Source: Comamonadaceae bacterium (GTDB taxonomy: Bacteria; Pseudomonadota; Gammaproteobacteria; Burkholderiales; Burkholderiaceae_C). From it: a DNA stretch of 24,273 nt. The notes beneath the pieces are model-generated. The model did not search any database and had not been told where the DNA came from. It saw only the letters and a program-made list of their open reading frames with translations. Positions 2,838-19,572 of this stretch are shown one piece after another; positions within the stretch are counted from its first letter, which is position 1, and every line of letters starts with the position of its first letter. Location: positions 1 through 24,273 of the forward strand of contig CANBRV010000001.1 in NCBI GenBank assembly GCA_947372005.1. The letters are read 5' to 3'. A program made the position numbers and the translations under genes.

Positions 2838-3622
2838 TAAAAAAATTGCTCATCCGCTTGAGTGTTTTGATTTTGCTGGGCGTGCTGGCGTTGCAAGTTT
2901 TTTTTCTAGCGCGTATCTTGATGATGCGCTGGATAGCGCCCGAATCGACGAGCTTTGAGCGCAGCAGCGCTTATCAAATAGCAACTACAAAACCACAACC
3001 TTGGACATTTGGTTGGCGGCAAACGTGGGTGCCTTACGAGCAAATTAGCAAGAACCTCAAGCGCGCCATCATTGCCTCTGAAGATGCCAGCTTTACTGAC
3101 CACGACGGCGTGGACTGGGCAGCCATCGAAAAAGCGTGGGATAAAAATAAAAAAGCGGAAAAGCTAGCCGAAAAAAATAAGCCTAAATTCAGCTTGTTTG
3201 GCAAGAAGCCAGCGGCTAAGCCTGCACAAGCCGCACAAACAAAGCCTCCTAAGACAGTAGGCGGCTCTACCATTACGCAGCAACTGGCTAAAAACCTATT
3301 TTTAAGCGGCGAGCGAACCTATCTGCGTAAGGCGCAGGAATACGTATTGGTTGTCATGCTGGAGGCACTGCTCTCCAAAGAGCGTATCTTTGAAATTTAC
3401 CTTAACCATGTCGAGTGGGGTGAGGGCGTATTTGGCGCTGAAGCCGCGTCGCAGTACTACTTTCACAAAAGTGCAGCTAAGCTAGACGCATATCAGGCAT
3501 CGCTTTTGGCCGTGATGCTGCCGCGTCCTAAATATTTCGAACGCCGTATCCATACGTCTGAGTATTTACAAAACCAAGCAGGTACAGTGCAAGCCCGCAT
3601 GGGTGGCGTGGATATCCCTTAA
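2834..3622 (+). CDS. mtgA: Monofunctional biosynthetic peptidoglycan transglycosylase (GT51)
   Basis: GT51 motifs EDASF, GGSTITQQLAKNLFL, RKAQE, YLNHVEWG, FGAEAASQYYF and LAVMLPRP. ATGA overlap with the tonB stop. Confidence 0.95.
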   Translation: MIKKLLIRLSVLILLGVLALQVFFLARILMMRWIAPESTSFERSSAYQIATTKPQPWTFGWRQTWVPYEQISKNLKRAIIASEDASFTDHDGVDWAAIEKAWDKNKKAEKLAEKNKPKFSLFGKKPAAKPAQAAQTKPPKTVGGSTITQQLAKNLFLSGERTYLRKAQEYVLVVMLEALLSKERIFEIYLNHVEWGEGVFGAEAASQYYFHKSAAKLDAYQASLLAVMLPRPKYFERRIHTSEYLQNQAGTVQARMGGVDIP

Positions 3623-3629
3623 AAAATTT

Positions 3630-4376
3630 ATGAACATCATTCCAGACCCGTGGTTTTACGCTGCCGCCATTCCAGCGGCTATTTTGATGGGGCTTGGCAA
3701 GAGCGGCTTTGGCGGCGGACTTGGCTCTTTGGCTGTGCCGTTTATGGCGCTCACTATTACGGTGCCGCAAGCTGCCGCCATCATGATGCCACTGCTCCTT
3801 TTGGCTGACGTGATTGGTTTGCGTGTTTTTAGACGTGAGTACGATAAAAAATTACTGCGCTTTATGCTGCCCTTTGGATTGCTTGGCATTGCCATTGGCA
3901 CATTTCTATTTAAGCTCTTATCAAAAAATATGGTGGCTGGCTGCGTAGGCGCTTTTACGTTGTTATTTTTGGCGCAGCAGTTGTTGATAAAGCCGAAGGT
4001 GGGCGGTGCGCCGCCTCCGCGCTGGTTGGGCGCGATTTTGATCACAACCTCAGGTTTTACTAGCTTTATTTCTCATGCAGGAGCGCCGCCGTTTAATGCT
4101 TACGCCATCCCGCTCAAATTGAAGCCTGTGATCTTTGCTGCGACGGCTTCATACTTTTTCTTCTTTATCAATTTTGCTAAATGGGTGCCTTACGCCTACC
4201 TAGGTTTGTTAGATATGCAAAATTTTTGGACCTCTATGGTGTTGATGCCGTTTGCTGGTCTTGGTGTTTGGATTGGTCAACATGTGGCACGCAAAATTAA
4301 TACGGTGATGTTCTATCGATTGGTTTACTTAGGTATGTTTTTGAGCGGTAGCAAGCTTTTGTGGGATGCGTTTTAA
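3630..4376 (+). CDS. TauE/SafE-family sulfite exporter-like membrane protein (248 aa)
   Basis: GLGKSGFGGGLG, AAAIMMPLL, SGFTSFISHAGAPP and K-x-x-F-AATASYFFFFIN patterns with about 8 hydrophobic segments. ATG 3630 is preferred over 3603, which lies inside mtgA. Confidence 0.85.
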   Translation: MNIIPDPWFYAAAIPAAILMGLGKSGFGGGLGSLAVPFMALTITVPQAAAIMMPLLLLADVIGLRVFRREYDKKLLRFMLPFGLLGIAIGTFLFKLLSKNMVAGCVGAFTLLFLAQQLLIKPKVGGAPPPRWLGAILITTSGFTSFISHAGAPPFNAYAIPLKLKPVIFAATASYFFFFINFAKWVPYAYLGLLDMQNFWTSMVLMPFAGLGVWIGQHVARKINTVMFYRLVYLGMFLSGSKLLWDAF

Positions 4377-4394: not shown

Positions 4395-6437
4395 ATGATT
4401 GAGCTGAGCTACCTCCAACAAAATTACGAAGTACTAGCGAATACCTTCGCACAAAACCCATCGGCCTTTGCTATAGGGTTTTTTGCGGTGTACGTGCTCG
4501 TGACGGCGTTGTCACTTCCGCTTGCCACGCTGCTTACGCTCTTGGCTGGCGCTTTGTTTGGTTTCTTACCAGGCATGCTGTTGGTGTCATTTGCGTCGGC
4601 CATTGGTGCAACAGCTGCGATGCTAATTGCGCGTTTTGTTTTTTCGCGTTTGATTTTGCAAAGATTTGGCTCTTACCTAGAGACGATTAATCAAGGCATA
4701 GAAAAAGACGGTGCGTTTTATTTATTTGCCCTGCGGCTGACACCTGTTGCCCCGTTTTTTATAGTCAATCTGTTGATGGGGTTGACGAAGATTCACGCCT
4801 TCACTTTTTATTGGGTCAGTCAGATCGGCATGCTTGCTCTCAGCGCTGTGTATGTCAATGCTGGCACTCAGCTGAAGACGTTGACATCGCTGTCAGGCAT
4901 CGCTAGCCCCATGCTTTTAGGCTCATTGGCGCTGGCTGGCATTGCACCGTTGTTGCTTAAAAAAATGATGGCCTGGATGATGGCTGCACGAGCTAAGGCC
5001 AATATCTATAAGCCTTGGCAAGAGGCGCGCCCTAGATCTTTTGACCGCAACTTGATTGTGATTGGCGGCGGTGCTGGCGGTCTTGTGTCTGCCTATATTG
5101 CCGCCGCAGTTAAAGCCAAAGTGACGCTGATTGAGGCGCACAAAATGGGTGGCGATTGTTTGAACTACGGCTGCGTGCCTAGCAAGGCGCTCATTAAAAG
5201 CGCCAAGGTCGCGCATCAAATGCGCCACGCGTCTCGCTATGGTTTGCAAAATACGGAGACAGCGCTTAGCTTCAAAGCAGTGATGGCGCGTGTACATCGT
5301 GTGATTGCCGAGATTGAACCGCACGACAGCATTGAACGCTACACAAACTTGGGTGTAGAGGTGTTGCAAGGCTACGCAAAAATAGTGAATCCGTGGACGG
5401 TTGAGGTCGCACTAAGCAACGGAGGCAAGCAAACATTGACGGCACGTTCAATTGTGATTGCCACGGGGGCATCCCCTTTTGTACCGCCGCTTGCAGGCAT
5501 AGAAGCTTCAGGGTATTTGACCAGCGATACGTTGTGGGATGCGTTTGCGAAACTGGACGCAATCCCCAAGCGAATCACGATTCTTGGTGGTGGTCCGATC
5601 GGGTGCGAGCTCGCGCAAGCCTTGCAGCGCTTGGGCGCCACTGTGACACTCATCGAGCAAGGGGACCGCTTGTTAATCCGCGAGGACGCGGATGTGTCTA
5701 ACTTTGCAAAGGCGGCGTTAGAAGCGGACGGCGTGCGTGTACTCACCAATCACACCATTGATCTTGGTCACCCAGACTATGACGCGCTCATCGTCGCAGT
5801 GGGTCGCTCGGCAAGACTGGACGGCTATGGCTTAGAGGCGCTTGGCATACCTGTCCACAAGACAATTGAAACGAATGAGTACTTGCAAACCATCTACCCC
5901 AATATTTATGCCGCAGGCGATGTGGCGGGGCCATATCAGTTTACCCACGTGGCTGCACATCAGGCTTGGTACGCGGCAGTCAATAGCTTGTTTGGCGGCT
6001 TCAAAAAGTTCAAAGTTGATTACTCGGTTATTCCAAGCGCTACGTTTATTGACCCCGAGATTGCACGCGTGGGTTTGAGTGAGCAGGACGCAAAGGCGCA
6101 AGGCGTGGCTTACGAAGTCACCAAATATGGCATAGATGATTTAGATCGCGCGATTGCTGATAGCGCTGCCGAGGGCTTTGTCAAAGTGCTCACGGCGCCT
6201 GGTAAAGACAAAATTTTGGGCGTGACGATTGTGGGCAGCAACGCCGCAGAGTTACTCGCCGAATACGTGCTGGCCATGAAGTATGGCCTCGGTTTAAACA
6301 AAATTTTAGGCACGATTCACACCTACCCCACCTTCTCAGAAGCCAATAAATACGCGGCTGGCGAGTGGAAGCGGACGCATCAACCGACTCGCCTTTTAGC
6401 GTGGGTTAAACGCTTTCACGATTGGCGGCGGGGTTAG
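4395..6437 (+). CDS. Fusion of a DedA/VTT (TVP38/TMEM64, SNARE-associated) membrane domain with a class-I flavin disulfide oxidoreductase (LpdA/MerA-like)
   Basis: About the first 190 aa are hydrophobic, with LFALRLTPVAPFFIVNLLMGLT. These are followed by GGGAGG (FAD), redox CLNYGC (5157-5174), GGGPIGCE (NAD(P)H), IYAAGDVAGPYQFTH and HTYPTFSE. There is no MerA C-terminal Cys-Cys pair. Confidence 0.88.
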   Translation: MIELSYLQQNYEVLANTFAQNPSAFAIGFFAVYVLVTALSLPLATLLTLLAGALFGFLPGMLLVSFASAIGATAAMLIARFVFSRLILQRFGSYLETINQGIEKDGAFYLFALRLTPVAPFFIVNLLMGLTKIHAFTFYWVSQIGMLALSAVYVNAGTQLKTLTSLSGIASPMLLGSLALAGIAPLLLKKMMAWMMAARAKANIYKPWQEARPRSFDRNLIVIGGGAGGLVSAYIAAAVKAKVTLIEAHKMGGDCLNYGCVPSKALIKSAKVAHQMRHASRYGLQNTETALSFKAVMARVHRVIAEIEPHDSIERYTNLGVEVLQGYAKIVNPWTVEVALSNGGKQTLTARSIVIATGASPFVPPLAGIEASGYLTSDTLWDAFAKLDAIPKRITILGGGPIGCELAQALQRLGATVTLIEQGDRLLIREDADVSNFAKAALEADGVRVLTNHTIDLGHPDYDALIVAVGRSARLDGYGLEALGIPVHKTIETNEYLQTIYPNIYAAGDVAGPYQFTHVAAHQAWYAAVNSLFGGFKKFKVDYSVIPSATFIDPEIARVGLSEQDAKAQGVAYEVTKYGIDDLDRAIADSAAEGFVKVLTAPGKDKILGVTIVGSNAAELLAEYVLAMKYGLGLNKILGTIHTYPTFSEANKYAAGEWKRTHQPTRLLAWVKRFHDWRRG

Positions 6438-7264
6438 CCTAAGATGCGCCGAATCCAGTAACTCAGCGCATCCACCAGCACAACGAGTGCGAGCATTGCC
6501 AAGAGCACCGAGCTGGTCTCTGCCATTTGAAACAGGCTCATGTGGAACGACAGCATCGCGCCTAGCCCCCCTGCGCCGACTACGCCCAGCACAGCGGCTG
6601 CGCGGATATTGTTTTCCCAGCGGTAGAGCGTGTAGCTAATGAGCTGAGGCATGATTTGCGGCAGCGTAGCGTAGAAAAAAATCTTGAGTTCGCCGACGCC
6701 ACTCGTCCGCAAAGCCATAGCGGGTGAGCCCTCCGCGTTTTCTATTGCCTCAGCAAACAAGCGCCCGAGCACGCCACTGGTATGTAGCGCCAGCGCCAAC
6801 GTGCCCGCCATGGGCCCTAGTCCCGCTGCAATCAAAAGCAAGGTTGCCCATATCAATTCGGGAATGCTACGCAGCGCATTGAGCACCGCACGTGTGATGG
6901 TGCGAACTGCACCTCGGCCACTGGCAGGAAGTGCCAGCAACAGTCCGAGCACCACCGCAAGTAAGGTACCAAGTGCCGACATGGCGAGTGTCTCTAGAGT
7001 TGCCCACGACAGCTTGCTTAAAAAAGAACCTTCAAAATTTGGCGTTAGCAGTTCAGCGACAAAGCGCCCCATTTTTTGCATGGCATCGACTGACAAGAAC
7101 TTGCCCCACTGTAAATCTAGCGACCAAAAGCTAGCGATAGTGAGTAGCGCAATGAAGAGGACATACCAGCATGCTTTGCAGCGTGCACTCCAAAGCGGTG
7201 GAGGTAACTGAGCAGGCAATTGAGCAGCTAAGCGCTTGCGGGTCATGTCTGGTGTAGCTTTCAA
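6434..7264 (-). CDS. ABC transporter permease, PhnE/PtxC-like (second permease)
   Basis: LRSIPELIWA, GLGPMAGTLALALHTSGVLGRLFAEAIE (EAA loop) and YRWENNIRAAAVLGVVGAGGLG. Start is TTG 7264 (overlapping the upstream stop) or ATG 7246. Confidence 0.9.
   Translation of the reverse strand: MKATPDMTRKRLAAQLPAQLPPPLWSARCKACWYVLFIALLTIASFWSLDLQWGKFLSVDAMQKMGRFVAELLTPNFEGSFLSKLSWATLETLAMSALGTLLAVVLGLLLALPASGRGAVRTITRAVLNALRSIPELIWATLLLIAAGLGPMAGTLALALHTSGVLGRLFAEAIENAEGSPAMALRTSGVGELKIFFYATLPQIMPQLISYTLYRWENNIRAAAVLGVVGAGGLGAMLSFHMSLFQMAETSSVLLAMLALVVLVDALSYWIRRILG
7202..7225. repeat. 12-bp imperfect tandem duplication encoding AQLP-AQLP
   Basis: AGGTAACTGAGC (7202-7213) and AGGCAATTGAGC (7214-7225), 10 of 12 identical. 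Confidence 0.7.
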
Positions 7265-8109
7265 GACAGCCCCTCCCGAAAGCGGCTACTGGCGCGGTCT
7301 GCCAGCCACACTAAAAGCATAAATATGAGCAACATCGTGCTGACTTCAGAGCCATTAAACATCTTCATCGAGGCATCCATTTGTTGCCCAAGTCCGCCCG
7401 CGCCCACAAAGCCCAGCACAGCGGACGAACGAATCGCGCACTCCCAGCGGTAAACGGTGTAGCTCGTCAGTTCCGCCGCGCTTTGCGGGAGTAAGCCATA
7501 AAAAAATGCTTGCAAGCGACCTGTGCCATTGCGTAGCAAGCTGTGCGTGACGGTAGGATCGCTGGATTCCAAAATCTCGCCGTAAACCTTGCCCAGCATG
7601 CCCGTATAAGTGAGCGCAATTGCCAGCACGCCAGCCGTGGGCCCTAGCCCGACGACACGAACAAAGATCAGCGCCCAAATGAGTTCGGGCACGCTACGCA
7701 GCACAATCAGTAGCCAGCGTGTCGCAGTGCGAATCGCGCCTGAGCCAATTCCCATATGGCCTGCAAGCCCGCTGACGGATAGCACGCGTGCCGTAATGAG
7801 TGAAAGCGGAATTGCAACAATGAGCGCGAGCGCAATGCCCGCCGTTGCCATGGCGACCGTGCGCCAAGTCTCGCGTGCCACCATCAGCAAAAACTCAGGC
7901 TCTAATTTGGGTGGAAAAAAATCAGCTAAAAATTTGAGCGTGGGTTTCAAGCTCTCTGCGGAAAACAGCGTCCAAATTTTGAATTCCGTTAGCACCAGCA
8001 TCGGCCACAGCAGCACGGCGGCGACGGCGATCCAAAAGACGCGACCCAAAAAAGCAGGATCACGCACTGGCGCGTGAGCAGGATCACGGAGGGCCTTAGG
8101 TAAGCTCAT
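7261..8109 (-). CDS. ABC transporter permease, PhnE/PtxC-like (first permease, 282 aa)
   Basis: LRSVPELIWA, GLGPTAGVLAIALTYTGMLGKVYGEILE and YRWECAIRSSAVLGFVGAGGLG. ATG 8109 is preferred because residues 1-26 of the track ORF lie within the ATPase gene. Confidence 0.9.
   Translation of the reverse strand: MSLPKALRDPAHAPVRDPAFLGRVFWIAVAAVLLWPMLVLTEFKIWTLFSAESLKPTLKFLADFFPPKLEPEFLLMVARETWRTVAMATAGIALALIVAIPLSLITARVLSVSGLAGHMGIGSGAIRTATRWLLIVLRSVPELIWALIFVRVVGLGPTAGVLAIALTYTGMLGKVYGEILESSDPTVTHSLLRNGTGRLQAFFYGLLPQSAAELTSYTVYRWECAIRSSAVLGFVGAGGLGQQMDASMKMFNGSEVSTMLLIFMLLVWLADRASSRFREGLS
8053..8088. repeat. 12-bp perfect direct repeat (AGCAGGATCACG) with 24-bp period, encoding RDPA-HAPV-RDPA in the permease N-terminus
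   Basis: Copies at 8053-8064 and 8077-8088, read directly from the sequence. Confidence 0.85.
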
Positions 8110-8860
8110 CGAGATGCTGGGCATACAAATCTTGGAGCCGCTCGGGCGTGACCTGGCTTGTCGGCAAATCAAACGCCAGCTCGCCATTCTTCAATCCGAT
8201 GATGCGCGGAAAATGCGCAAGCGCCATCTGCACGTGATGTAGTGTTGCGACCAGTGTCACGCCGCGCGCCCTTGCGTTGCCTGTCAAAGTCTCGATGGCT
8301 TGAACAGCACGCGCTGGGTCAAGTGCAGACAGCGGCTCGTCAATTAACCACAGCTTGCTATCAGATACCAATCCTCTTGCAAGCCCCACCCGCTGGCGTT
8401 CACCGCCCGATAGTCTATCCACGCGCTCAAACAATTTATCGGCTAAATCAAATTGCGCTAGCGCCTGCTGCGCCGTTGGAATATCGACTGGATAAAACAA
8501 ACTGCGGAGGCTCGTCCAAAACCCCATGCGCGGCAATTGCCCCGCCAGCACGCTGGTGACGACGCGCTGTCGCGGCGGCAGGGGCGGTACTTGCGGCGCC
8601 AAAAATAAATCACCGCGAAGGCGTTGCAAATCATTTTTTGCAAGTTGCCACGGGTCGTGCTCATCCAACTTCAATGAGCCTGTCGCTGGAATCAAGGCAC
8701 ACGCCAGTAAGGAAAGCAGAGTCGTCTTGCCCGCACCAGAAGGGCCAATGACCGCAACTTTTTCGCCCGCATTTATGGTCAGCGTGATCGGCTGCAAAGC
8801 CAAGCTGGCTGAGGCTGCAGCGGGATGTCTGCCTGCTGCGGCGAGCAGTTCAATCTTCAT
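8096..8860 (-). CDS. ABC transporter ATP-binding subunit, PhnC-like
   Basis: Walker A GPSGAGKT, signature LSGGERQRV, Walker B/D-loop WLIDEPLSALD and H-loop LHH. Confidence 0.93.
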   Translation of the reverse strand: MKIELLAAAGRHPAAASASLALQPITLTINAGEKVAVIGPSGAGKTTLLSLLACALIPATGSLKLDEHDPWQLAKNDLQRLRGDLFLAPQVPPLPPRQRVVTSVLAGQLPRMGFWTSLRSLFYPVDIPTAQQALAQFDLADKLFERVDRLSGGERQRVGLARGLVSDSKLWLIDEPLSALDPARAVQAIETLTGNARARGVTLVATLHHVQMALAHFPRIIGLKNGELAFDLPTSQVTPERLQDLYAQHLDELT

Positions 8861-8868
8861 TTTGAACG

Positions 8869-9711
8869 TTACTTAATCAAACCCGCGCTACGGCCAGCTG
8901 CTTCAATGCCTTTGTAGTTGTCCGCCTTGGTGGGAATAAACCGCGTCGCACGTTGCAAGTCCAAAATCGATTTTCCTTCAGACGTATTCGCGTTTAAATC
9001 CAAAAATGCTTTGGTCAGTTTCTCGCGCAGGGCGGCGGGCATGTCGGCGTGGACTGTCCAGTTGTAATCAAAGTAGGCGGGCGTGGTGTAGAACACGTTA
9101 ACTTTGCTTGCATCCACTTTTTTGTCTGCCACAAACTTATCCCACACAGAGATATTGAGCGCACCCGCATCGACCTTGCCTGCGGCTACGGCTGCAATAG
9201 TGGCATCGTGTGCGCCCGAAAACGCCACGCGTTTGAGGTCAGTATCAGGATTGATTTTTGCATCCAACAAAAACTTGCGCGGCATCAAATGCCCCGAGGT
9301 GCTGGAGGCCGAACCGAAGGACAGCGTATGGCCTTTGAGGTCAGCGAGTGTTTTGATCGTGGGGTCGCTGGTGATAAATACAGAGCGAAATTTCTCGTCT
9401 TCTTCGCGCTGCACAAGCGGAATCATCTTGCCACCCGAGCGGATATTGGCTTGCACAAAAGTAAAACCGCCAAACCATGCTAAATCGATTTGCTTGTTGG
9501 CAAGCGCCTCGACTGATGCAGCGTAGTCGGACACGGGCGTGAACTCGACCTTCATTCCTAATTTAGTTTCAAGATATTTCACCAGCGGCGCGGCCTTACG
9601 GGCGAGTTCGGTGGGCGACTCGTCGGGGATGGCGGTGACTTTAAAAACAGCTTGCGCTGATACACCGAAAGCACAGAGAGAGAGAAGCAGTGCAGATAAA
9701 AATTTCAACAT
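8869..9711 (-). CDS. Periplasmic substrate-binding protein of the PhnD/PtxB superfamily, resembling the SelD-linked 'putative selenate ABC transporter' clade
   Basis: Sec signal peptide MLKFLSALLLSLCAFGVSA, AIPDESPTEL, DLAWFGGFTFVQA, oxyanion-binding SSTSGHLMP, SGAHDA and YFDYNW. SD-like AAGGGA lies upstream. The clade is assigned from recalled family sequence and gene context. Confidence 0.85.
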   Translation of the reverse strand: MLKFLSALLLSLCAFGVSAQAVFKVTAIPDESPTELARKAAPLVKYLETKLGMKVEFTPVSDYAASVEALANKQIDLAWFGGFTFVQANIRSGGKMIPLVQREEDEKFRSVFITSDPTIKTLADLKGHTLSFGSASSTSGHLMPRKFLLDAKINPDTDLKRVAFSGAHDATIAAVAAGKVDAGALNISVWDKFVADKKVDASKVNVFYTTPAYFDYNWTVHADMPAALREKLTKAFLDLNANTSEGKSILDLQRATRFIPTKADNYKGIEAAGRSAGLIK

Positions 9712-9735
9712 GAAAAATCCCTTAAAAATAACAGT

Positions 9736-10788
9736 CTATTTTCCACAACTTCTAAACCCTGCAAAAATATCTGTCCGATCGGGCGTAAAAAAGTTTCGAT
9801 ACTTGGGATGCACCATACGCGCCGACGTAGCAATCGATGCGCCGCGTAAGACTTTGCGCGAGCCAAACCATGGCTCAGAATAGTCTTTATACGCATGTGC
9901 CGTAAAGCTAGGGTACGGCTCGAATGTGCTGTCTGTCCACTCCCACACCTCGCCCCACTTGAAATTTGAGTTAGACATTGCGGAGCATTCCCACTCAGCC
10001 TCACTGGGCAATCGCCTGTCAGCCCAATCGCACCAAGCCTTAGCATCAAACCAATTGATGTGAACAGCTGCATCGTTTGGGTTCCCCACGAGACGCGGCA
10101 TCTCGCGGCCCGTCGCCCGTGCAAACGGCAAATACTCGGCCCACGTGACGACTCGCGAATCAATCTCAAAAGCAGGTAATGCGACTTCGTGCTGCGAGAG
10201 TTCGTTGTCGAACGCAAAGCCCTCATTTGTGGAACCCAACCACCACTTGCCCTCTGGCATAGATAGGCTGGACTTCGTCGGCTGCTTTGACTTGGAAGCC
10301 ATACGTAGCAAGGTTTGCGGGACAGGCACATTTAAAAACTCTGCTGAATAAATGGCCGCTTCCGCGTGCATGTCTTCGTGAAAAAGCACGAGGCGATAAA
10401 AGTACAGCGTTTCGTCAGAATCCGTTTTTTCTGCTGCAAGTTTGGTGAGAATGTCGTCCAGACTGACTTGCATCAGCGCCTTGGTTTGCTCAAAGGTTGG
10501 CAGCGGTAAATCCCAGCGCGTGTCGTGCGGGACGTGGCTTGAGTCATATAGCACGTCGTATGCAAGTAAATCATGAAAGCCGCGCCAAGTTTGTGGACAT
10601 AGCCAGTGATCGGCAAACCACGCGATGTGTCCGAGTTCCCATAGCGGCGGGTTGAGCGTTGCAAGCCTTGGCACGGTGAGCGACTCGCCAAGCGCTGCTG
10701 CGTAAGCATCTGCCAGTGTCATCGTACGAGCACGCGCTTGGCGTAGCATGTGGGCAAGTTCGGCGGCACTGGCGGTTCGGGCATTCAT
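9736..10788 (-). CDS. senA: Selenoneine synthase SenA-like non-heme iron enzyme (DinB-2 plus FGE-sulfatase domains, 350 aa)
   Basis: LNPPLWELGHIAWF, YDSSHVPHDTRWDLPLP, iron motif FHEDMHAE and C-terminal WGEVWEWT...DYSEPWFG...YRNFFTPDRTDIFAGFRSC match my recollection of Variovorax SenA rather than EgtB. senB and selD are in the same locus. Start is ATG 10788 or GTG 10797. Confidence 0.85.
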   Translation of the reverse strand: MNARTASAAELAHMLRQARARTMTLADAYAAALGESLTVPRLATLNPPLWELGHIAWFADHWLCPQTWRGFHDLLAYDVLYDSSHVPHDTRWDLPLPTFEQTKALMQVSLDDILTKLAAEKTDSDETLYFYRLVLFHEDMHAEAAIYSAEFLNVPVPQTLLRMASKSKQPTKSSLSMPEGKWWLGSTNEGFAFDNELSQHEVALPAFEIDSRVVTWAEYLPFARATGREMPRLVGNPNDAAVHINWFDAKAWCDWADRRLPSEAEWECSAMSNSNFKWGEVWEWTDSTFEPYPSFTAHAYKDYSEPWFGSRKVLRGASIATSARMVHPKYRNFFTPDRTDIFAGFRSCGK

Positions 10789-10800
10789 GCCGTGCACTGT

Positions 10801-10838
10801 AATGTATGGGCCAATTGTGCGACGAAGATGTGTACATT
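10801..10838. promoter_or_regulatory. Candidate divergent promoter region with mirrored TACATT (-10-like) hexamers
   Basis: AATGTA at 10801-10806 (TACATT on the minus strand, facing senA) and TACATT at 10833-10838 (plus strand, facing egtB). No convincing -35 element. Confidence 0.3.
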
Positions 10839-10861
10839 CATTTTTATTCAGGAAATTCCCC

Positions 10862-12163
10862 TTGAGTCCTACCGAATTTGTTAGCGTTTACCGCGCCGTC
10901 AGAGCGCAAAGCCTAGAGCTCACAGCGCACCTAAGCCTCGAAGACATGGCCTTGCAATCCATGCCCGACGCCAGCCCGACCAAATGGCATTTGGCGCACA
11001 CGACTTGGTTTTTTGAAGTCGTGGCGCTTAAAAAATGGCATGCAGACTATGAAGGCTTTAATATCGCCTATGCGTATTTGTTTAACTCGTACTACGAAGC
11101 GCTAGGCGATCGTCAACCGCGTCCGCTACGCGGCATATTGTCGCGCCCCGCCTTGATGGACGTGTTGGCGTATCGCGAACGAGTCGATAACGCCTTGCAG
11201 GACTGGCTACAAAAGGTGAGCCCATCCGATTGGATACAAGCGCAGCCCTTGCTGGTGCTGGGCTTACACCACGAGCAGCAGCACCAAGAACTCATCGTCA
11301 CAGATATGCTGCATCTCTTGGCGCAAAACCCGCTCTTGCCAACATGGTCGCCGCCCTCTATCAGGCGTGCACAACAGTCGTCTGTGCCACTTTCATCTGC
11401 ACCGCTTGCGTGGCTAGAGCACGCTGGTGGCGTGCAGATGGTAGGTACGAACGAGCAGGCGGGCGTCTTTGCATTTGACAACGAGTGTCCCAATCACCCC
11501 GTATGGATTGAGCCGTTTGCCATAGCGAATCGCTTAGTTAATTGCGGCGAATACCTCACCTTTATGGAGGACGGCGGTTATGAGCGGCCAGAATTTTGGT
11601 TATCGGAAGGCTGGGCACGTGTGCAGCAGGACGACTGGCATGCGCCGCTCTATTGGGTGAGTGCGAGTGATAAACGTCTTGATTTTTGCACCGAGACAAG
11701 CCAAGCGCAGCAAGGCTTAGCAAGCGATTGGTCTGTGTATGGCGTGCACGGTTTGCAGACTTTACAAGCGCATGAAGCCGTAACGCATCTGAGCTTTTAT
11801 GAAGCCAGTGCCTACGCGGCTTGGGCGGGTGCTAGGCTGCCAACCGAATTTGAGTGGGAAGTGCTAGCCCAAGCGCAGCAAGGCGCAGCGAGCAGCGACA
11901 GCCTGCAAGATTTATACGGAGTGGCTTGGCAGTGGACACGCTCGTCATACGATCCCTATCCGCACTTCAAGCCCATGACGGGCGAGGTTGCCGAGTACAA
12001 CGGCAAGTTCATGGTCGGGCAATTGGTGCTGCGTGGGTCGAGCGCTTTCACGCCGCTTGAACCCTTCGCGCATACCAGGGCGACTTATCGCAATTTCTTT
12101 CCACCTGCTGCGCGATGGCAATGCACAGGACTTCGTTTGGCCAAGGACAAGAGCACGTTATGA
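10862..12163 (+). CDS. egtB: Ergothioneine sulfoxide synthase EgtB, type-II-like (433 aa)
   Basis: QSMPDASPTKWHLAHTTWFFE, LFNSYY loop (11081-11095), iron motif HHEQQHQE, FAFDNE, YNGKFM and RATYRNFF...RWQCTGLRLA. TTG 10862 has AGGAAA 6 nt upstream. The track start at 10748 overlaps senA and is unlikely. Confidence 0.9.
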   Translation: MSPTEFVSVYRAVRAQSLELTAHLSLEDMALQSMPDASPTKWHLAHTTWFFEVVALKKWHADYEGFNIAYAYLFNSYYEALGDRQPRPLRGILSRPALMDVLAYRERVDNALQDWLQKVSPSDWIQAQPLLVLGLHHEQQHQELIVTDMLHLLAQNPLLPTWSPPSIRRAQQSSVPLSSAPLAWLEHAGGVQMVGTNEQAGVFAFDNECPNHPVWIEPFAIANRLVNCGEYLTFMEDGGYERPEFWLSEGWARVQQDDWHAPLYWVSASDKRLDFCTETSQAQQGLASDWSVYGVHGLQTLQAHEAVTHLSFYEASAYAAWAGARLPTEFEWEVLAQAQQGAASSDSLQDLYGVAWQWTRSSYDPYPHFKPMTGEVAEYNGKFMVGQLVLRGSSAFTPLEPFAHTRATYRNFFPPAARWQCTGLRLAKDKSTL

Positions 12164-13125
12164 ACCCCACGATCGATATAGAAGTACAGGCCCACAATTT
12201 CGCGACCGACATGCAGGCGGCGCTTGCAAGCGCTAGCAAACAAATCTCACCCAAGTATTTTTATGACGCCAAGGGTTCGCTGCTGTTCGATCAAATTTGT
12301 GAACTGCCCGAGTACTACCCCACGCGCACCGAATGGGCGGTGCTTGAGCAATACGCGCCGCAGATGGCTGAGTGTTTGGGGGCAGATATTGATTTAATTG
12401 AGTTTGGCGCAGGTTCGCTGCGCAAAGTGCGGTTGTTGTTGGATGCTTTAATGGCGCAAAAAACGCCACCTAAAAGCTATGTGCCCATCGACATTTCGGG
12501 CGCGCATTTGGCCGAATCCAGCTTGCAATTGCAAAAGCAATATCCAGCGCTGGGCGTCACGACGTGGGTGTCGGATTATTCGCAGGCCTTAGTGCTGCCG
12601 CCCGCACTAATGCAGGCCAATCGTCGCCGCATGGGATTCTTCCCAGGATCGAGCTTGGGCAACTTTGCACCCGGCGAGGCGCTTGCTTTTATGACCCAAG
12701 CTGCGCAGATGCTTGGCGGCGGCGGTCTGCTGGTGGGCGTCGATTTGGTGAAAGATCCACAAGTACTGCATGCCGCTTACAACGACCAACAAGGCATCAC
12801 GGCTGCGTTCAATTTGAACTTGCTTGCCCGTGCCAATCGCGAGTTAGGTGCTGACTTTGATCTGAATGCATTTGCGCATTACGCTTTTTATGAGCCGCGG
12901 CACCAGCGAATCGAAATGCATTTGCAAAGTCTTCGCGCACAGCACGTGCGGCTGCTCGGGCAGACTTATTCGTTTCGTGAGGGCGAGACCTTGCATACCG
13001 AAAACTCCTACAAATACACGCTGGACAGCTTGCACCAATTAGCCAAGCAGGCAGGCTTTGAGGTGGGTATACATTGGACGGACAGCCAGCAACAGTTTTG
13101 TGTGCAGTGGCTTATCGCTCCCTAG
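12160..13125 (+). CDS. egtD: L-histidine N-alpha-trimethyltransferase EgtD (321 aa)
   Basis: ISPKYFYDAKGSLLFDQICELPEYYPTRTE, IEFGAGS, FFPGSSLGNF, GVDLVKD, AYND..GITAAFNLNLL and HTENSYKYT. ATGA overlap with the egtB stop fixes the start at 12160. Confidence 0.95.
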   Translation: MNPTIDIEVQAHNFATDMQAALASASKQISPKYFYDAKGSLLFDQICELPEYYPTRTEWAVLEQYAPQMAECLGADIDLIEFGAGSLRKVRLLLDALMAQKTPPKSYVPIDISGAHLAESSLQLQKQYPALGVTTWVSDYSQALVLPPALMQANRRRMGFFPGSSLGNFAPGEALAFMTQAAQMLGGGGLLVGVDLVKDPQVLHAAYNDQQGITAAFNLNLLARANRELGADFDLNAFAHYAFYEPRHQRIEMHLQSLRAQHVRLLGQTYSFREGETLHTENSYKYTLDSLHQLAKQAGFEVGIHWTDSQQQFCVQWLIAP

Positions 13126-13157
13126 CACGGTCATTTTTAAATTTTTTGGAGAACAAC

Positions 13158-14594
13158 ATGACAACTCATCGCTGTGACGCACTCATCATTGGCGCGGGAC
13201 AAGCCGCTCCCGCTTTAGCTGTAGCCTTGGCAGGCAGGGGTGAAAAAGTTATTTTGGTGGAAGGCAACCAACTGGGCGGCACGTGCGTGAATGTAGGCTG
13301 CACGCCCACCAAGACGCTGCGTAAAAGTGCGCGCGTGGCTTACATGGCAAGACGCGGCGCAGAGTTTGGCGTCAACACCGGCGCAGTCACGATTGATTTT
13401 GCCAAGGCGATGGACAGGATGCATGAGCGAGTGAACGCTTCGCGCACAGGGCTAGAAGGCTGGCTTGCTAATACCCCTAATGTCACCGTGCTACGCGGCT
13501 GGGGGTCTCTTGCAGGCCATACAGGACAAGGTTTTCAGGCCGTTGTTGATGGCAAGGGTGAGCAGCAGCACATTATGGCAGCTCGTGTGTATTTGAATAC
13601 AGGCACTCGCCCCCTCATGCCACCGATTGAAGGATTGGACAAGCCCGACGCACGCATCTTGAACAACGAGAGCTTGCTGCAATTGCGCGAATGCCCCAAG
13701 CATTTATGCATTTTGGGCGGCAGCTACATTGGCTTAGAGTTTGCGCAAATTTTTAGGCGCTTGGGCGCCGAGGTCACGGTGATTGAACCCAGCCACCGCA
13801 TCGCCATGCGCGAAGACGAAATCGTCACGAATGCCATTACCGATTTTCTGCGGGAAGAAGGCGTGCAGATTTTGACCAGCACCACGCTTGAGAGGGTCGA
13901 TGGCGCTGGCAGCGATTTGCAGCTGCACGTACAAACCAAAAATGCGGACTACAGCTTGCAGACCAACATTCATAAGGCTTCCCACTTACTGGTGGCGACG
14001 GGGCGCTTGCCCAATACAGAGCGATTAAACCTTGCTTCCATTGGTTTGCCAGTCGATGCTCGCGGCTATTTGGATGTGAATGGCCAATTGGAAACGGCCG
14101 TGGCGGGCGTGTGGGCGCTGGGCGATATCAACAAACGCGGTGCGTTTACGCACACCAGCTATCACGACTTTGAAATCGTGCGGGACAACTTAAAAGAGCC
14201 GAACGCCTTGCGCAGTGCCGATGACCGTGTCACGGCGTACGCCATGTTTACCGATCCGCCGCTAGGTCGCGTGGGGCTCAGCCGCTCCGCAGCCAAGGCC
14301 GAGAGCGACAAGTCGGGCAGGCAGTTTTTAATTGCCGAGCACCACATGCGCTTTGTCAGCCGCGCTAAAGAGGAAAGCGAAACGCATGGTGTGATTCAGT
14401 TTATTGTGGACGCGAAGACGGAAAGCTTTGTGGGTGCAACGGTGCTGGGCATCAATGGCGACGAGATCATTCAAGTGGTGAGCAACTACATGGCCACGGG
14501 CGCAAGCTACAAGCTGATGCGCAATTGCTTACCTGTGCATCCGACGGTGACCGAATTCTTCCCCACGATATTGGATAAGCTAGCGGCACTATGA
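13158..14594 (+). CDS. Soluble class-I flavin disulfide oxidoreductase (MerA/LpdA/RclA-like, 478 aa), substrate unknown
   Basis: IIGAGQA (FAD), redox CVNVGC (13284-13301), GGSYIGLE, VWALGD..FTHTS and HPTVTE. GGAG SD lies before ATG 13158. There is no MerA N-terminal metal domain or C-terminal Cys-Cys pair. Confidence 0.88.
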   Translation: MTTHRCDALIIGAGQAAPALAVALAGRGEKVILVEGNQLGGTCVNVGCTPTKTLRKSARVAYMARRGAEFGVNTGAVTIDFAKAMDRMHERVNASRTGLEGWLANTPNVTVLRGWGSLAGHTGQGFQAVVDGKGEQQHIMAARVYLNTGTRPLMPPIEGLDKPDARILNNESLLQLRECPKHLCILGGSYIGLEFAQIFRRLGAEVTVIEPSHRIAMREDEIVTNAITDFLREEGVQILTSTTLERVDGAGSDLQLHVQTKNADYSLQTNIHKASHLLVATGRLPNTERLNLASIGLPVDARGYLDVNGQLETAVAGVWALGDINKRGAFTHTSYHDFEIVRDNLKEPNALRSADDRVTAYAMFTDPPLGRVGLSRSAAKAESDKSGRQFLIAEHHMRFVSRAKEESETHGVIQFIVDAKTESFVGATVLGINGDEIIQVVSNYMATGASYKLMRNCLPVHPTVTEFFPTILDKLAAL

Positions 14595-15586
14595 ATCCAC
14601 CGCGTCCGCACATCGTTATCGTCAGTCCCGCGCTTTCGGACGCGAACAATGGCAATTGGCAAACCGCGAATCGCTGGCGGCAAATGCTGGCCAAAAATTT
14701 CCACTGCCGTATTGTTCAAACATGGCCGGATAAATTTGCCAATCAAGACAACGTAATGATCGCGCTGCATGCCCGCAAGTCGGCTGATTCGATCGCGGCT
14801 TGGCACGCGGCGCATGGCGGCTCGCGCCTCGTGCTGGCGCTGACGGGAACGGATCTCTATCGCGATATTCAAACGAACGCCGCCCCCAAGGCCTCATTGG
14901 CTATGGCTTCGCGTCTCATCGTGCTGCAAGAGCTTGCACCGCTTGGCTTGCCAGAGGTGTGCCGCGCGAAGGCCGAAGTGATCTTTCAATCGACCACAAA
15001 CCAGCCCACACATCTGAAACCAGCGGCGCATTTGAGAGCCGTAATGGTGGGGCATTTGCGAAGCGAGAAATCACCCGAGACTTTGTTTGCTGCGGCCAAA
15101 CTTTTAAATGCGGATGACCCTATCTTCATTGATCACATCGGCGCAGGGCTGGATGCTGATTTGGCAAAGGCGGCCGAAGCGACGGCCAGCGCCTGTCCGC
15201 ATTACCGCTGGCTGGATTCGATGCCGCATGAAACCACGCGCCGAGCCATCCAACGTGCGCATGTGCTGGTACACGCCAGCAAGATGGAAGGCGGTGCGCA
15301 TGTGCTCATGGAGGCGGTGTGCTCGGGCACGCCTGTGCTGGCGTCGCGCATCGACGGCAATGTGGGCATGCTCGGCGCAGATTACGCGGGCTATTTTGAT
15401 TGGGGTGATGCGGCAGGATTGGCGCGGTTATTGCGCGAGTGCCGAGCTAGTCAAAATGACGAAAACGGTCTACTGGCAAGACTTGGCGAGCAATGCACAC
15501 TGCGTGCACCGCTGTTTGCACCAGAGGCTGAGAGTGCTAAATTAAATGCTCTTGTAAATTCCCTAGTTATTGCGCTGTTAGAGTAG
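14591..15586 (+). CDS. senB: Selenosugar synthase SenB (GT-B glycosyltransferase, TIGR04348-like)
   Basis: IVIVSPALSDANNGNWQTANRW, ALHARKSA, LTGTDLYRDI, VMVGHLRSEKSP, SKMEGGAHVLMEA and SRIDGNVGMLG closely match my recollection of Variovorax SenB. Directly upstream of selD. Confidence 0.92.
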   Translation: MNPPRPHIVIVSPALSDANNGNWQTANRWRQMLAKNFHCRIVQTWPDKFANQDNVMIALHARKSADSIAAWHAAHGGSRLVLALTGTDLYRDIQTNAAPKASLAMASRLIVLQELAPLGLPEVCRAKAEVIFQSTTNQPTHLKPAAHLRAVMVGHLRSEKSPETLFAAAKLLNADDPIFIDHIGAGLDADLAKAAEATASACPHYRWLDSMPHETTRRAIQRAHVLVHASKMEGGAHVLMEAVCSGTPVLASRIDGNVGMLGADYAGYFDWGDAAGLARLLRECRASQNDENGLLARLGEQCTLRAPLFAPEAESAKLNALVNSLVIALLE

Positions 15587-15590
15587 ATGG

Positions 15591-17915
15591 ATGCAAGCAT
15601 CTGATCAACCTATTCTTCGAGACATTGTCTTAGTTGGCGGCGGACACAGTCACGTGGTCGCGCTAAAAAGCTTTGCCATGAAACCCATGGTTGGCGTGCG
15701 TCTCACCGTGATTTGCACCGACACGCACACGCCCTACTCGGGTATGTTGCCCGGCTATGTGGCGGGACATTACGACTACGACGCTGTGCATATTGATCTT
15801 GGCAAGCTTTGCGCTTTTGCGGGCGCGCGGCTTTACACGGCGCAAGTGACGGGCATTGACCGCGTGGCAAAAAAGGTGATGTGCAAAGGCCGCCCTGATG
15901 TGGCTTACGACGTGCTGTCCATCAACATTGGATCGAGCCCGCAAGTGCACAGCGTGCCGGGAGCCAATGAATACGCAATCCCCGTCAAACCCATCGCGCA
16001 ATTTAACGAGCGCTGGCTCGCATTACTCGCGCGTAGTGAATCGCCTCTGAGCGTTGCCGTGGTAGGTGGCGGCGCGGGTGGCATAGAGCTTTTGCTAGCA
16101 ATGCAGCACCGAATCAAAAACGCGAGCTTCAGTTTGTTTACCGAAGGCACGGCGATACTGCCAACGCACCATCAGGCTGTGCAAAAACGGTTCATGCAGG
16201 TGCTGGCCGATCGCGACGTGTCGGTTCATTTGAATACACCTGTGACCCAGCTGACGATGCAAGGAAGTCGTCATCAACTCCATAGCAAAACCGAGCAGTT
16301 TTCGTTCGAGGAAGTAATGTGGGTCACGCAAGCGGGCGGTGCTGCGTGGCTTGCGGATACTGGGCTAGCGCTCGATCCTCGCGGTTTTATTGAAGTGAAC
16401 GATTGCCTTCAATCGACAGCGGATGCAAACATTTTTGCCGCAGGTGATATCGCGAACATGGTGAATCACAAGCTGGAGAAGGCGGGTGTGTTTGCGGTGC
16501 GGCAAGGCATGCCGCTGGCGGAGAATTTGCAGCGTAGCGTGCAAGGTGTGGCGCTGAAACCGTATCGTCCACAAAGGCGTTGGCTGGCTTTGATTAGCAC
16601 GGGCGACAAGCAAGCGGTAGCTTCACGCGGCGCGCTTTGGGGATCCGCAACGAAGCTTGGCATGGGCGGCGCAAATGCAAGCGGTGCACTCCTTTGGCGC
16701 TGGAAAGATTGGATCGATCAGCGATTTATGCGTCGCTTCTCCGAGTTTCCTGCGATGGATGAATTAGCCCGTAAGCCACACCCTATAAGGCTTGCAGCAG
16801 GGGCATCTATCAAGCTCACTTCCGAAGAATCACTGCAAGCCATCTCCGCCATTGCCATGCGCTGCGGCGGCTGCGGCGCAAAAGTGGGCGCGACGGTGCT
16901 CTCGCGGGCGCTGGGCAGCCTGTCACCGATTGAACGAGATGATGTGCTGATTGGCTTGCACGCACCCGACGACGCGGCGGTGGTGCGCGTTCCTGCTGGC
17001 AAGGCGATGGTGCACACCGTCGATTTTTTCCGCGCCTTTATCGACGACCCCTACATCTTTGGTCGCGTCGCGGCTAATCATGCACTCGGTGACATCTTTG
17101 CGATGGGTGGCACGGCGCAGTCTGCGACCGCCATTGCCACCGTGCCGCCTGGGCTGGAAGCCAAGGTGGAAGCTACTTTGCGCGACATGATGGCGGGCGC
17201 GGTGGAAGTGCTGAACGCCGCGGGCTGTGCGCTGGTGGGCGGTCACACGGGCGAAGGCAAAGAGTTGGCGTTAGGCTTTGCGATCAATGGACTCGTCGAT
17301 ATTGCGAGTGACGGAATCACACTGCCGCGCACCATGACCAAGGGCGCAATGAAGGCGGGCGATGTGCTCCTCCTCACTAAACCCATGGGCACGGGCACGC
17401 TGTTTGCGGCGCTGCCAAAAGGCAAAGCGAAAGGGCGCTGGATTGATGCGGCGCTTGCCTCGATGCAGCAATCGAACCAAGCGGGAGCCGTATGTTTGTT
17501 GGCTCACGGGGCCACGGCGTGTACCGACCTCACGGGCTTTGGCTTACTCGGGCACTTGGTTGAAATGACGAAGCCATCAGGTGTAGATGCTGAAATTAAT
17601 CTCGCTGCTTTGCCGCTTTTGGATGGTGCGGAAGAGTGCGTTAAAGCAGGGATTACCAGCTCGTTGCAAAGCGCCAATGTGCGGTTGCGCCGAGCGATCA
17701 AAAATCAAGAGGCATTTATCAATCACCCCAGATACCCACTCATTTTTGATCCACAAACGGCGGGTGGTTTGCTAGCGAGTGTGCCCGTAAGCCATGTGGA
17801 TGCTTGCGTGGCGGAGTTGAAAGCGCTGGGCTATACGCACACGGCGATCATTGGGCGCATCTTACCGATGGGTGATGCGGTGGAAGCGATTACTTTAATA
17901 GGAGAGACACCATGA
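15591..17915 (+). CDS. selD: Selenophosphate synthetase SelD/SenC fused to an N-terminal pyridine nucleotide-disulfide/NADH-dehydrogenase-like flavoprotein domain
   Basis: N-terminal LVGGGHSHV, PYSGMLPG, VVGGGAGGIE, IFAAGD and KAGVFAVRQG. The SelD part has MRCGGCGAKVG (16857-16889), PDDAAV, HTVDFF, NHALGDIFAMGG, LVGGHT, TDLTGFGLLGHL and DPQTAGGLL. Confidence 0.95.
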   Translation: MQASDQPILRDIVLVGGGHSHVVALKSFAMKPMVGVRLTVICTDTHTPYSGMLPGYVAGHYDYDAVHIDLGKLCAFAGARLYTAQVTGIDRVAKKVMCKGRPDVAYDVLSINIGSSPQVHSVPGANEYAIPVKPIAQFNERWLALLARSESPLSVAVVGGGAGGIELLLAMQHRIKNASFSLFTEGTAILPTHHQAVQKRFMQVLADRDVSVHLNTPVTQLTMQGSRHQLHSKTEQFSFEEVMWVTQAGGAAWLADTGLALDPRGFIEVNDCLQSTADANIFAAGDIANMVNHKLEKAGVFAVRQGMPLAENLQRSVQGVALKPYRPQRRWLALISTGDKQAVASRGALWGSATKLGMGGANASGALLWRWKDWIDQRFMRRFSEFPAMDELARKPHPIRLAAGASIKLTSEESLQAISAIAMRCGGCGAKVGATVLSRALGSLSPIERDDVLIGLHAPDDAAVVRVPAGKAMVHTVDFFRAFIDDPYIFGRVAANHALGDIFAMGGTAQSATAIATVPPGLEAKVEATLRDMMAGAVEVLNAAGCALVGGHTGEGKELALGFAINGLVDIASDGITLPRTMTKGAMKAGDVLLLTKPMGTGTLFAALPKGKAKGRWIDAALASMQQSNQAGAVCLLAHGATACTDLTGFGLLGHLVEMTKPSGVDAEINLAALPLLDGAEECVKAGITSSLQSANVRLRRAIKNQEAFINHPRYPLIFDPQTAGGLLASVPVSHVDACVAELKALGYTHTAIIGRILPMGDAVEAITLIGETP

Positions 17916-18373
17916 CTAAAAAAACGTTCGAAAATCTATCCGATCTCACAGCTTTTGTCGGCCAAGAAATTGCGGGCGGCGATTGGCTCACCATTACGCA
18001 AGAGCAGGTGAATCTATTTGCCGACGCGACGGGCGATCACCAGTGGATTCACGTCAACCCCGAGTTAGCTGCCAAGGGGCCGTTTAAGACCACCATTGCA
18101 CATGGTTTTTTAACGCTGTCGCTGCTGCCGACATTTTTTGAATCCAGCTTTTCTATTACCAACTCGCGCATGGGCGTGAACTATGGTTTGAACAAAGTGC
18201 GCTTCACCTCGCCCGTGCCTGTGGGCTCGCGTCTGCGTGCTGCAATGAAACTGCTCGCGCTCGACCCTATCGACAACAGCGGCGTGCAGATGACGTGGCT
18301 GGTGACGGTTGAGCGCGAGGGCTCGGACAAGCCCGTGTGCATTGCGGAGTCGTTGGTGAGGCGCTATCCTTAA
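17912..18373 (+). CDS. MaoC/NodN-like hot-dog-fold dehydratase
   Basis: FADATGDHQWIHV, TTIAHGFLTLSLL and NYGLNKVRFTSPVPVGSRLR. ATGA overlap with the selD stop. Confidence 0.9.
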   Translation: MTKKTFENLSDLTAFVGQEIAGGDWLTITQEQVNLFADATGDHQWIHVNPELAAKGPFKTTIAHGFLTLSLLPTFFESSFSITNSRMGVNYGLNKVRFTSPVPVGSRLRAAMKLLALDPIDNSGVQMTWLVTVEREGSDKPVCIAESLVRRYP

Positions 18374-18841
18374 TCATGCGGTTTTAAACCCGCACTGTCG
18401 CCAAGCCTCAAACACCGTCACGGCGACGGCGTTGGATAAATTGAGGCTGCGCTGTCCCTCAATCATCGGCAGTCTGAGGCGCTGCTCGGGCGCAAACGAT
18501 TCACGTAAATCTAGAGGCAAGCCTTGTGTTTCGGAACCAAAGACAAACCAGTCGCCTGCTTGGAAGGCTTGCTGGTAGGGGCTTGCCAAGCCTTTGGTCG
18601 TGAAGGCAAACATGCGCTTAGCCTGCGGGGCAGCAGTCTCTAGAAAGGCTTGCCAATTGGCGTAGCGCGAAACAGGCGAGTACTCGTGATAGTCCAGTCC
18701 CGCGCGGCGCATCTGTTTGTCGCTCATGTCAAAACCCAGCGGCTCAATCAAGTGCAATCGCGAACCCGTGTTGGCGCACAAACGGATGATGTTGCCCGTG
18801 TTGGGCGGAATTTCGGGGGTGACGAGAACGACGTTAAACAT
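18374..18841 (-). CDS. trmL: tRNA (cytidine/uridine-34 2'-O)-methyltransferase TrmL (SPOUT family, 155 aa)
   Basis: PEIPPNTGNIIRLCANTG, RRAGLDYHE, FVFGSETQGLP and RSLNLSNAVAV. ATG 18841 (MFNVVL) is preferred. Confidence 0.93.
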   Translation of the reverse strand: MFNVVLVTPEIPPNTGNIIRLCANTGSRLHLIEPLGFDMSDKQMRRAGLDYHEYSPVSRYANWQAFLETAAPQAKRMFAFTTKGLASPYQQAFQAGDWFVFGSETQGLPLDLRESFAPEQRLRLPMIEGQRSLNLSNAVAVTVFEAWRQCGFKTA

Positions 18842-18848
18842 GTGGTGA

Positions 18849-19566: not shown

Positions 19567-19572
19567 CGCGTG

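Follow-up and report, generated by a model that had tools for sequence, protein, structure and literature searches.

Which compound is taken up by an importer whose genes stand directly behind a selenoneine synthase gene? The question is raised by a stretch of 24,273 nt (the window) on contig CANBRV010000001.1, which belongs to the metagenome-assembled genome (MAG) of a Comamonadaceae bacterium, 2.12 Mb in size and 78% complete. On the minus strand of this window, senA is followed head to tail by genes for a PhnD-family binding protein, an ATPase, and two PhnE-type permeases. All the parts of a type I ATP-binding cassette (ABC) importer are present, the binding protein having a signal peptide, and the importer genes are either spaced by no more than 8 nt or overlapping. 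We put the chances at slightly better than even that the system is an ABC importer of inorganic selenium, most probably selenite.

According to a 2022 review (PMC8981825), the only known routes of selenite into bacteria are non-specific carriers, namely PitA, a sulfate permease, and an acetate permease; a dedicated importer has yet to be defined biochemically. In NCBIfam, the family TIGR04553 (ABC_peri_selen) is entered as a "putative selenate ABC transporter substrate-binding protein" with the rank of a hypothetical equivalog. A putative selenate transporter gene has also been described near many sen clusters (Kayrouz et al. 2022, preprint 10.1101/2022.04.13.486033). As for the locus itself, it is real and an ordinary member of a class of selenium-linked PhnD1-type importers that is predicted in the database and noted in the literature. 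The idea of the original prediction for this DNA is not new, as a putative selenium transporter had already been named in both sources.

The binding protein and its pocket

The binding protein reaches 413.9 bits with TIGR04553 (cut-off 250) and 228.6 bits with TIGR01098 (cut-off 112), and also matches Pfam Phosphonate-bd. With the PhnD equivalog TIGR03431, it scores 158.9 bits, under the cut-off of 261.1, and is thus not a member. A Sec signal peptide is predicted to be cleaved after AQA at residue 21. The hidden Markov model comparison proposed in the original prediction is therefore clearly in favour of TIGR04553 over TIGR01098, and the assignment to a SelD-linked clade labelled "putative selenate" from context alone agrees with this score and with the complete sen/egt locus. 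The STSG, H-D, and Tyr-type oxyanion motifs that had been read from the sequence are found as S137-T138-S139-G140, H168-D169, Y63, and Y216.

Among proteins of known structure, the binding protein matches the picocyanobacterial PhnD1 proteins 7S6G (from Synechococcus MITS9220; E-value 1e-57) and 5LQ5 (3e-47, 37% identity). Its pocket residues D30, Y63, T84, F108, S136-S139, H168, N186, D215, and Y216 are all identical to the PhnD1 contact residues, which are Y44, S123-S126, H156, D203, Y204, D11, N174, and T65 in the numbering of MITS9220 and F90 in that of MIT9301. A pocket signature of 15 columns is shared by 16 of the 30 proteobacterial and 75 of the 86 cyanobacterial TIGR04553 members, and the proteins of both phyla pass one common TIGR04553 cut-off. 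F108/D215/Y216 was rejected as a family-specific signature, since more distant representatives mostly carry these residues too. A nesting of cyanobacterial PhnD1 between selenium-linked clades is likewise not claimed, the deep nodes having support of 0.58-0.69 and the midpoint root being arbitrary. The MAG contains a second PhnD-type binding-protein fragment at a contig edge (G000:C89:10-240), which scores 70 bits with TIGR01098.

A protein of one picocyanobacterial genome (G447) is 100% identical over 273 residues to the chain of 5LQ5, the PhnD of Prochlorococcus MIT9301, and scores 302.6 bits with TIGR04553. The family thus has members that have been studied biochemically, the picocyanobacterial PhnD1 proteins being the only ones. 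NCBI gives the name "putative selenate" binding proteins to homologues from freshwater Cyanobium, whose scores are 260-345 bits. The MIT9301 protein binds phosphite with a dissociation constant of 0.051 uM, phosphate with 182 uM, and methylphosphonate with 109 uM (PMC5700983); in Synechococcus PhnD1 proteins, the constants are 0.67-2.8 uM for phosphite and 7-88 uM for phosphate (PMC10284923). The preference for phosphite over phosphate is therefore 10 to 3500-fold, while picocyanobacteria that have only PhnD1 do not grow on phosphite, phnD1 is not regulated by phosphate, and the cellular role is called unknown in both papers (PMC5700983, PMC10284923).

In the PhnD1 structures, three oxygens are gripped in a trigonal arrangement (PMC5700983, PMC10284923). 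An Asp (D205 in MIT9301) acts as hydrogen-bond acceptor, so that a mono-protonated anion is bound, and a Tyr cap (Tyr206 in MIT9301) sterically penalises groups bulkier than H at the fourth position, where H, OH, CH3, and C2H5 are nevertheless tolerated (PMC5700983). A selenium ligand is mentioned neither in these two papers nor in the supplements of the PhnD1 paper.

Association with selenium use

In the MAG, the only SelD is that of SenC, encoded 6 kb from the binding-protein gene, and SelU is encoded elsewhere; SelA was searched for without success in the assembly (78% complete). The wider association was surveyed in 401 genomes of Pseudomonadota, 131 of Cyanobacteriota, and 121 of picocyanobacteria. 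TIGR04553 proteins over the cut-off occur in 30 of the 401 proteobacterial genomes, with bimodal scores (at least 326 or at most 171 bits), whereas SelD occurs in 104 and SenB in 11. SelD is present in 26 of the 30 carriers as against 78 of 371 non-carriers. SenB is encoded in only seven carriers, suggesting that the importer follows selenium use generally and not selenoneine as such. Ten carriers, from two subclades with a mutual identity of about 35%, have selD or sen genes no more than 15 kb from the gene of the binding protein.

The arrangement seen in the window recurs in a relative (locus L154) whose binding protein is 86% identical and where senA, binding protein, ATPase, and two permeases diverge from senB-senC. 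In other genomes, the importer stands beside selD, egtD, or senB, and in a Rhodoferax with an 82% identical binding protein it stands alone. Three loci of one genus (L059-L061, in genomes G107, G229, and G259) combine a senC fusion, senB, and a TIGR04553 importer; no SenA/EgtB match was found in their 20-kb stretches, and this genus may have a selenosugar-only or a different pathway.

Among Cyanobacteriota, a SelD-type gene is present in all 12 TIGR04553 carriers and in 16 of 119 non-carriers. Where a long frame for an oxidoreductase-SelD fusion is present, 11 of 13 genomes carry TIGR04553, as against one of 15 where SelD is stand-alone and contains selenocysteine. No SenB was found in the 131 genomes when the top 15 glycosyltransferase candidates of each were scored. 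In the picocyanobacteria, a TIGR04553 protein was found in 110 genomes and the fusion in 114, the fusion gene being directly upstream of the binding-protein gene on the same strand in eight of the 121. Three of five picocyanobacterial genomes that have no TIGR04553 match also have no fusion. The counts overstate the statistical strength of the association, because kin are not independent. This kinship problem does not touch the observation that the genes adjoin each other in several lineages and in two phyla.

The genome that encodes the MIT9301 protein has SelU (326 bits) and an oxidoreductase/SelD-related fusion of the family TIGR04369 (971 bits). It thus has a selenium-using trait, and a supply of selenium is needed. 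Such fusions are 720-820 aa long and score 866-971 bits (L151:1094-3265 in G447, L145:5041-7251, L148:5100-7553). TIGR04369 is named "not SelD" by its curators, yet the same genomes carry SelU, and no other SelD-type match is among those listed for them; the name "fusion_not_SelD" may be wrong. In a 4.7-Mb cyanobacterial genome that has TIGR04553 elsewhere, a fusion-type SelD adjoins SelU (G569:C1:4204563-4206571). In another genome (G497, L148:3715-9601), one strand carries, one after another, genes for a permease of the SulP family (426 bits), the SelD-like fusion, a 324-aa open reading frame (ORF) that has no annotation, and the TIGR04553 binding protein.

Selenite and its rivals as substrate

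Of the two selenium oxyanions, selenite carries three oxygens and at pH 7-8 occurs largely as HSeO3-, while selenate has four oxygens and no proton. A pocket identical to that of PhnD1, with its grip on three oxygens, its Asp acceptor, and its Tyr cap, would thus favour hydrogen selenite over selenate. In the proposed route, trace inorganic selenium, most probably hydrogen selenite, would be scavenged from fresh water by the importer. Cytoplasmic thiols and the flavoprotein disulfide reductases of the locus, including the N-terminal domain of SenC, could then reduce selenite to selenide, from which the SelD domain of SenC would form selenophosphate. SenB and SenA would use it, together with hercynine from EgtD, to make selenoneine, and SelU would draw on the same selenophosphate pool for 2-selenouridine in tRNA. 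If this is true, the source organism has a complete pathway of its own, leading from selenium in the environment to selenoneine and selenouridine.

Several points weigh against selenite. All the measured ligands of the family (phosphite, phosphate, and methyl- and ethylphosphonate) are phosphorus compounds. With its PhnD1-type contacts, the protein of the window very likely binds phosphite tightly, which is the first half of what the original prediction named as its own refutation. Selenite is slightly larger than phosphite and has a lone pair in place of the P-H...pi contact, so that its affinity cannot be predicted. Four of the 30 proteobacterial carriers have no SelD match (the complete genome G230 and three MAGs that are incomplete), most carrier loci do not adjoin selenium genes, and about 20 genomes of Pseudomonadota have a fusion-type SelD and no TIGR04553 protein. 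The association is partly phylogenetic, SelD being common in the same bacterial families. As the MAG is 78% complete, absences from it are weak evidence. Finally, co-transcription of senA with the importer genes, although most likely, is judged from their spacing only.

The strongest rival is a phosphorus oxyanion importer, for phosphite or with medium affinity for phosphate, whose position in the sen locus would be irrelevant to its substrate. Besides the measured ligands and the identical contact residues, it can draw on Shah et al., who propose a constitutive phosphate role for PhnD1. The SelD-type link is, however, strong and repeated in two phyla, and includes direct adjacency and operon fusion with sen/selD genes. 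No ORF matches a carbon-phosphorus (C-P) lyase or PtxD-type family in the window, to which the search for ptxD was confined; the original prediction was right that such genes are absent there. No PhnJ turned up in the MAG, 78% complete as it is, and the window has no match to a Pho box even with up to three mismatches allowed. Two PstS genes indicate that phosphate uptake is served elsewhere in the MAG. The importer is thus dispensable for phosphorus, which is counted for selenium. The failure of PhnD1-only picocyanobacteria to grow on phosphite and the phosphate-independent expression of phnD1 also speak against a phosphorus role, which we regard as unlikely.

Taken at its word, the database name calls for a selenate importer, and the imported selenate would have to be activated by ATP sulfurylase, or else reduced at some other place, on its way to SenC. 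The name is curated, its wording is shared by Kayrouz et al., the CysD-like gene of the MAG could activate selenate without a molybdoenzyme, and ArrX shows that the fold can take a tetrahedral oxyanion, in crystals even sulfate. Against this, the name is that of a hypothetical equivalog given from context only, a pocket equal to that of PhnD1 penalises a fourth oxygen 10 to 3500-fold, and the acceptor D215 needs a protonated ligand, whereas selenate has no proton. In the classical rule that sets phosphate-binding apart from sulfate-binding proteins (Luecke and Quiocho 1990, cited in PMC10284923), such a carboxylate in the pocket reportedly rejects sulfate-like dianions, and this counts against selenate as well. 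Moreover, the MAG carries a sulfate-binding protein (Sbp/CysP) and a CysD-like sulfate adenylyltransferase, so that a route for selenate through the sulfate system already exists. Selenate import appears quite improbable on these grounds, and to judge from the pocket, the substrate in the TIGR04553 name is probably wrong, with selenite being the right one.

The original prediction had also preferred selenite to selenate, on three grounds, one of them being that thiol/flavin disulfide reductase systems can reduce selenite. The likeness of selenite to phosphite gains indirect support from the PhnD1 pocket. The lack of a molybdoenzyme selenate reductase, in contrast, was argued for the window only and ignored the assimilatory route; the sulfate system weakens this argument, but not the conclusion that selenite is the substrate. 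A different or broader ligand, such as tellurite, arsenite, selenosulfate, a small organoselenium oxyacid like methylseleninate, or selenite and phosphite both, has very little probability, for although PhnD1 accepts H, OH, CH3, and C2H5 at the fourth position and the ligands of the homologues AioX and ArrX are arsenite and arsenate, there are no arsenic or tellurium context genes, the tight capped pocket implies a very small ligand, and selenite is the simplest fitting selenium species.

The selenite reading has a precedent in plants, yeast, Daphnia, and E. coli, where phosphate carriers let selenite in. A dedicated high-affinity selenite importer might be represented by the whole TIGR04553 family, including the PhnD1-C-E system that is near-universal in Prochlorococcus and in marine and freshwater Synechococcus; we give this extension somewhat less than even chances. 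Nanomolar phosphite binding would then be mimicry and TIGR04369 a working selenophosphate synthetase feeding SelU, both of which we advance just as tentatively. If true, the paradox of a phosphite-binding transporter in cells unable to use phosphite would be resolved, and picocyanobacteria would be major specific consumers of oceanic selenite. A defined substrate could explain the PhnD1 system of the most abundant phototrophs of the ocean and fix a database name that is spreading to thousands of genomes. As purified and crystallised PhnD1 proteins exist, the question can be tested cheaply.

Organization of the locus

The features of the locus are listed in Table 1.

Table 1. Genes and intervals around the senA-importer unit, in window positions
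Feature	Position	Strand	Basis and remarks
senA, selenoneine synthase, 350 aa	9736..10788	-	Start codon ATG 10788; heads the putative operon; listed ORF 9736-10797
Spacer between senA and binding-protein gene, 24 nt	9712..9735	-	Ribosome-binding site AAGGGA read in the sequence
Periplasmic substrate-binding protein, 280 aa	8869..9711	-	TIGR04553; PhnD1-type oxyanion pocket
ABC ATPase, PhnC-like, 254 aa	8096..8860	-	TIGR02315; Pfam ABC_tran
Permease 1, PhnE-like	7261..8187	-	TIGR01097; Pfam BPD_transp_1
Permease 2, PhnE-like	6434..7264	-	TIGR01097
Divergent control region between senA and egtB, 73 bp	10789..10861		Starts at ATG 10788 and TTG 10862
Divergent partner operon: egtB, egtD, FAD (flavin adenine dinucleotide) disulfide reductase, senB, senC	10862..17915	+	Family profile scores
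Convergent neighbour: VTT/DedA-type membrane N-terminus fused to FAD disulfide reductase	4395..6437	+	PRK06370.1-3

The senA stop codon TAG lies at 9736-9738 and the ATG of the binding-protein gene at 9711, and 8 nt separate the stop of the latter from the ATPase ATG. The ORF coordinates thus bear out the gene order on one strand and the gaps of 24 and 8 nt that the original prediction described. Of the overlaps said to follow, the one between the permease genes is certain (4 nt), while that between ATPase and permease 1 depends on the start codon: candidate ATG codons give an overlap of 17-92 nt and a later GTG a short gap. The start of permease 1 is uncertain, its TIGR01097 match beginning at residue 50. 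The stop of permease 2 interlocks with the convergent DedA-reductase gene. With TIGR02315 (PhnC), the ATPase scores 181 bits, under the cut-off of 266, and matches ABC_tran of Pfam; its gene is kept beside the binding-protein gene in 26 of 29 related loci. Permease 1 reaches 203 bits with TIGR01097 (PhnE), below the cut-off of 217, and matches BPD_transp_1, whereas permease 2 passes this cut-off with 252 bits.

An operon headed by senA is consistent with this spacing, and in this respect the original prediction stands; RNA data add nothing to it, as no contig spans the senA junction. The public RNA data consist of one metatranscriptome contig of 151 nt inside the binding-protein gene and otherwise of DNA-like metagenome contigs. 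Between 6200 and 11100, no sigma-70-like site was found by a promoter scan, and terminator-like sites number eight against 7.5 expected by chance, none being inside an intergenic gap. In the senA-egtB spacer, no repeats were found at the chosen search thresholds. The motif TGAAT occurs there twice, 10 nt apart, on the minus strand (10836-10850), either as a regulator site or by chance.

SenA scores 421.1 bits with NF041186, a marginal pass by 1 bit over the cut-off of 420. Its best sequence match in the PDB is the V. paradoxus SenA (8K5I/8RYZ, E-value 2e-90), EgtB reaching only 1e-31. The SenA of the window retains the iron-binding His and HxxxH motifs and lacks about 36 residues (260-295 of the V. 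paradoxus SenA) between the DinB-like and FGE-like domains. In the divergent operon, EgtB (TIGR03440, 471 bits) probably starts at TTG 10862, which is preceded by AGGAAA and shares the reading frame of the ORF from 10748; the profile match begins at residue 46 of this ORF. It is followed by EgtD (TIGR03438, 402 bits), a PRK06370-type FAD disulfide reductase (506 bits), SenB (TIGR04348, 415.5 bits, cut-off 300), and SenC, an oxidoreductase-SelD fusion recognised by TIGR03169 (475 bits, cut-off 310) and TIGR00476 (282 bits, cut-off 125). With SenA, SenB, and SenC together, the locus is a sen gene cluster. A MaoC-like dehydratase ORF (17912-18373) and the stop of senC overlap by 4 nt. This ORF may join the egtB-senC operon, although it has no obvious part in selenoneine synthesis.

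The reductase part of the convergent DedA-reductase matches PRK06370.1-3 with 454 bits from residue 207, and the protein is a possible partner in selenium reduction. A fusion of VTT_dom and Pyr_redox recurs about 4 kb from the matching senA-importer operon of L154. As a conserved partner of the importer, the protein was rejected, since it is absent near the importer in 29 other loci and the recurrence in L154 is a matter of context only. In L154, the last permease gene is followed by one for a major facilitator superfamily transporter (13483-14715), the VTT(DedA)-Pyr_redox fusion being on the other strand (17436-19598). No NCBIfam family is matched by a 257-aa ORF of the window (3603-4376) that stands between mtgA and the gene for the DedA-reductase.

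Comparison with known systems

The closest relative of the importer among studied systems is the picocyanobacterial PhnD1-C-E (5LQ5/5LQ8, 7S6G). The two belong to the same HMM family, have identical contact residues, lack phosphite/phosphonate catabolic genes, and co-occur with a SelD-type fusion and SelU. PhnD1-C-E differs in being described only as a phosphorus binder, in having TIGR04369 as partner, and in its single fused PhnE, while here the partner is a TIGR03169-type SenC in a selenoneine cluster and the permeases are two separate proteins.

PtxB of PtxABC (P. stutzeri 5O2J, Trichodesmium 5JVB) shares the fold and the oxyanion site of STS, His, and Tyr cap, and a high affinity for phosphite is to be expected in both. 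It is more distant (E-values of only 1e-31 to 1e-29), and the Trichodesmium protein has the Tyr donor Y100 where F108 and the Asp acceptor D215 are found here, as in PhnD1. The importer is not assigned to PtxABC, as its pocket is of the PhnD1 type and the window, the part of the genome searched for ptxD, has no PtxD-type ORF and thus no ptxD neighbour. E. coli PhnD/PhnCDE shares the transporter architecture and Pfam Phosphonate-bd, but TIGR03431 stays under its cut-off, and neither a C-P lyase in the window nor PhnJ in the incomplete MAG was found. E. coli PhnD has a much larger pocket for 2-aminoethylphosphonate, a compound that is not bound by proteins of the PhnD1 type.

AioX and ArrX, which bind arsenite and arsenate, belong to the same superfamily and were recruited to a non-phosphorus oxyanion, so that such a switch does happen. 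They are distant (E-values of 1e-17 to 1e-11) and serve as sensors of two-component systems and not as transporter subunits. The closest likeness is to the "putative selenate transporter" of TIGR04553 and Kayrouz et al. (2022), with 414 bits against a cut-off of 250, a senA/senB/senC locus, and PhnC/PhnE-type partners. Nothing essential separates the importer from this class, except that here and in L154 senA is the gene immediately upstream of the one for the binding protein.

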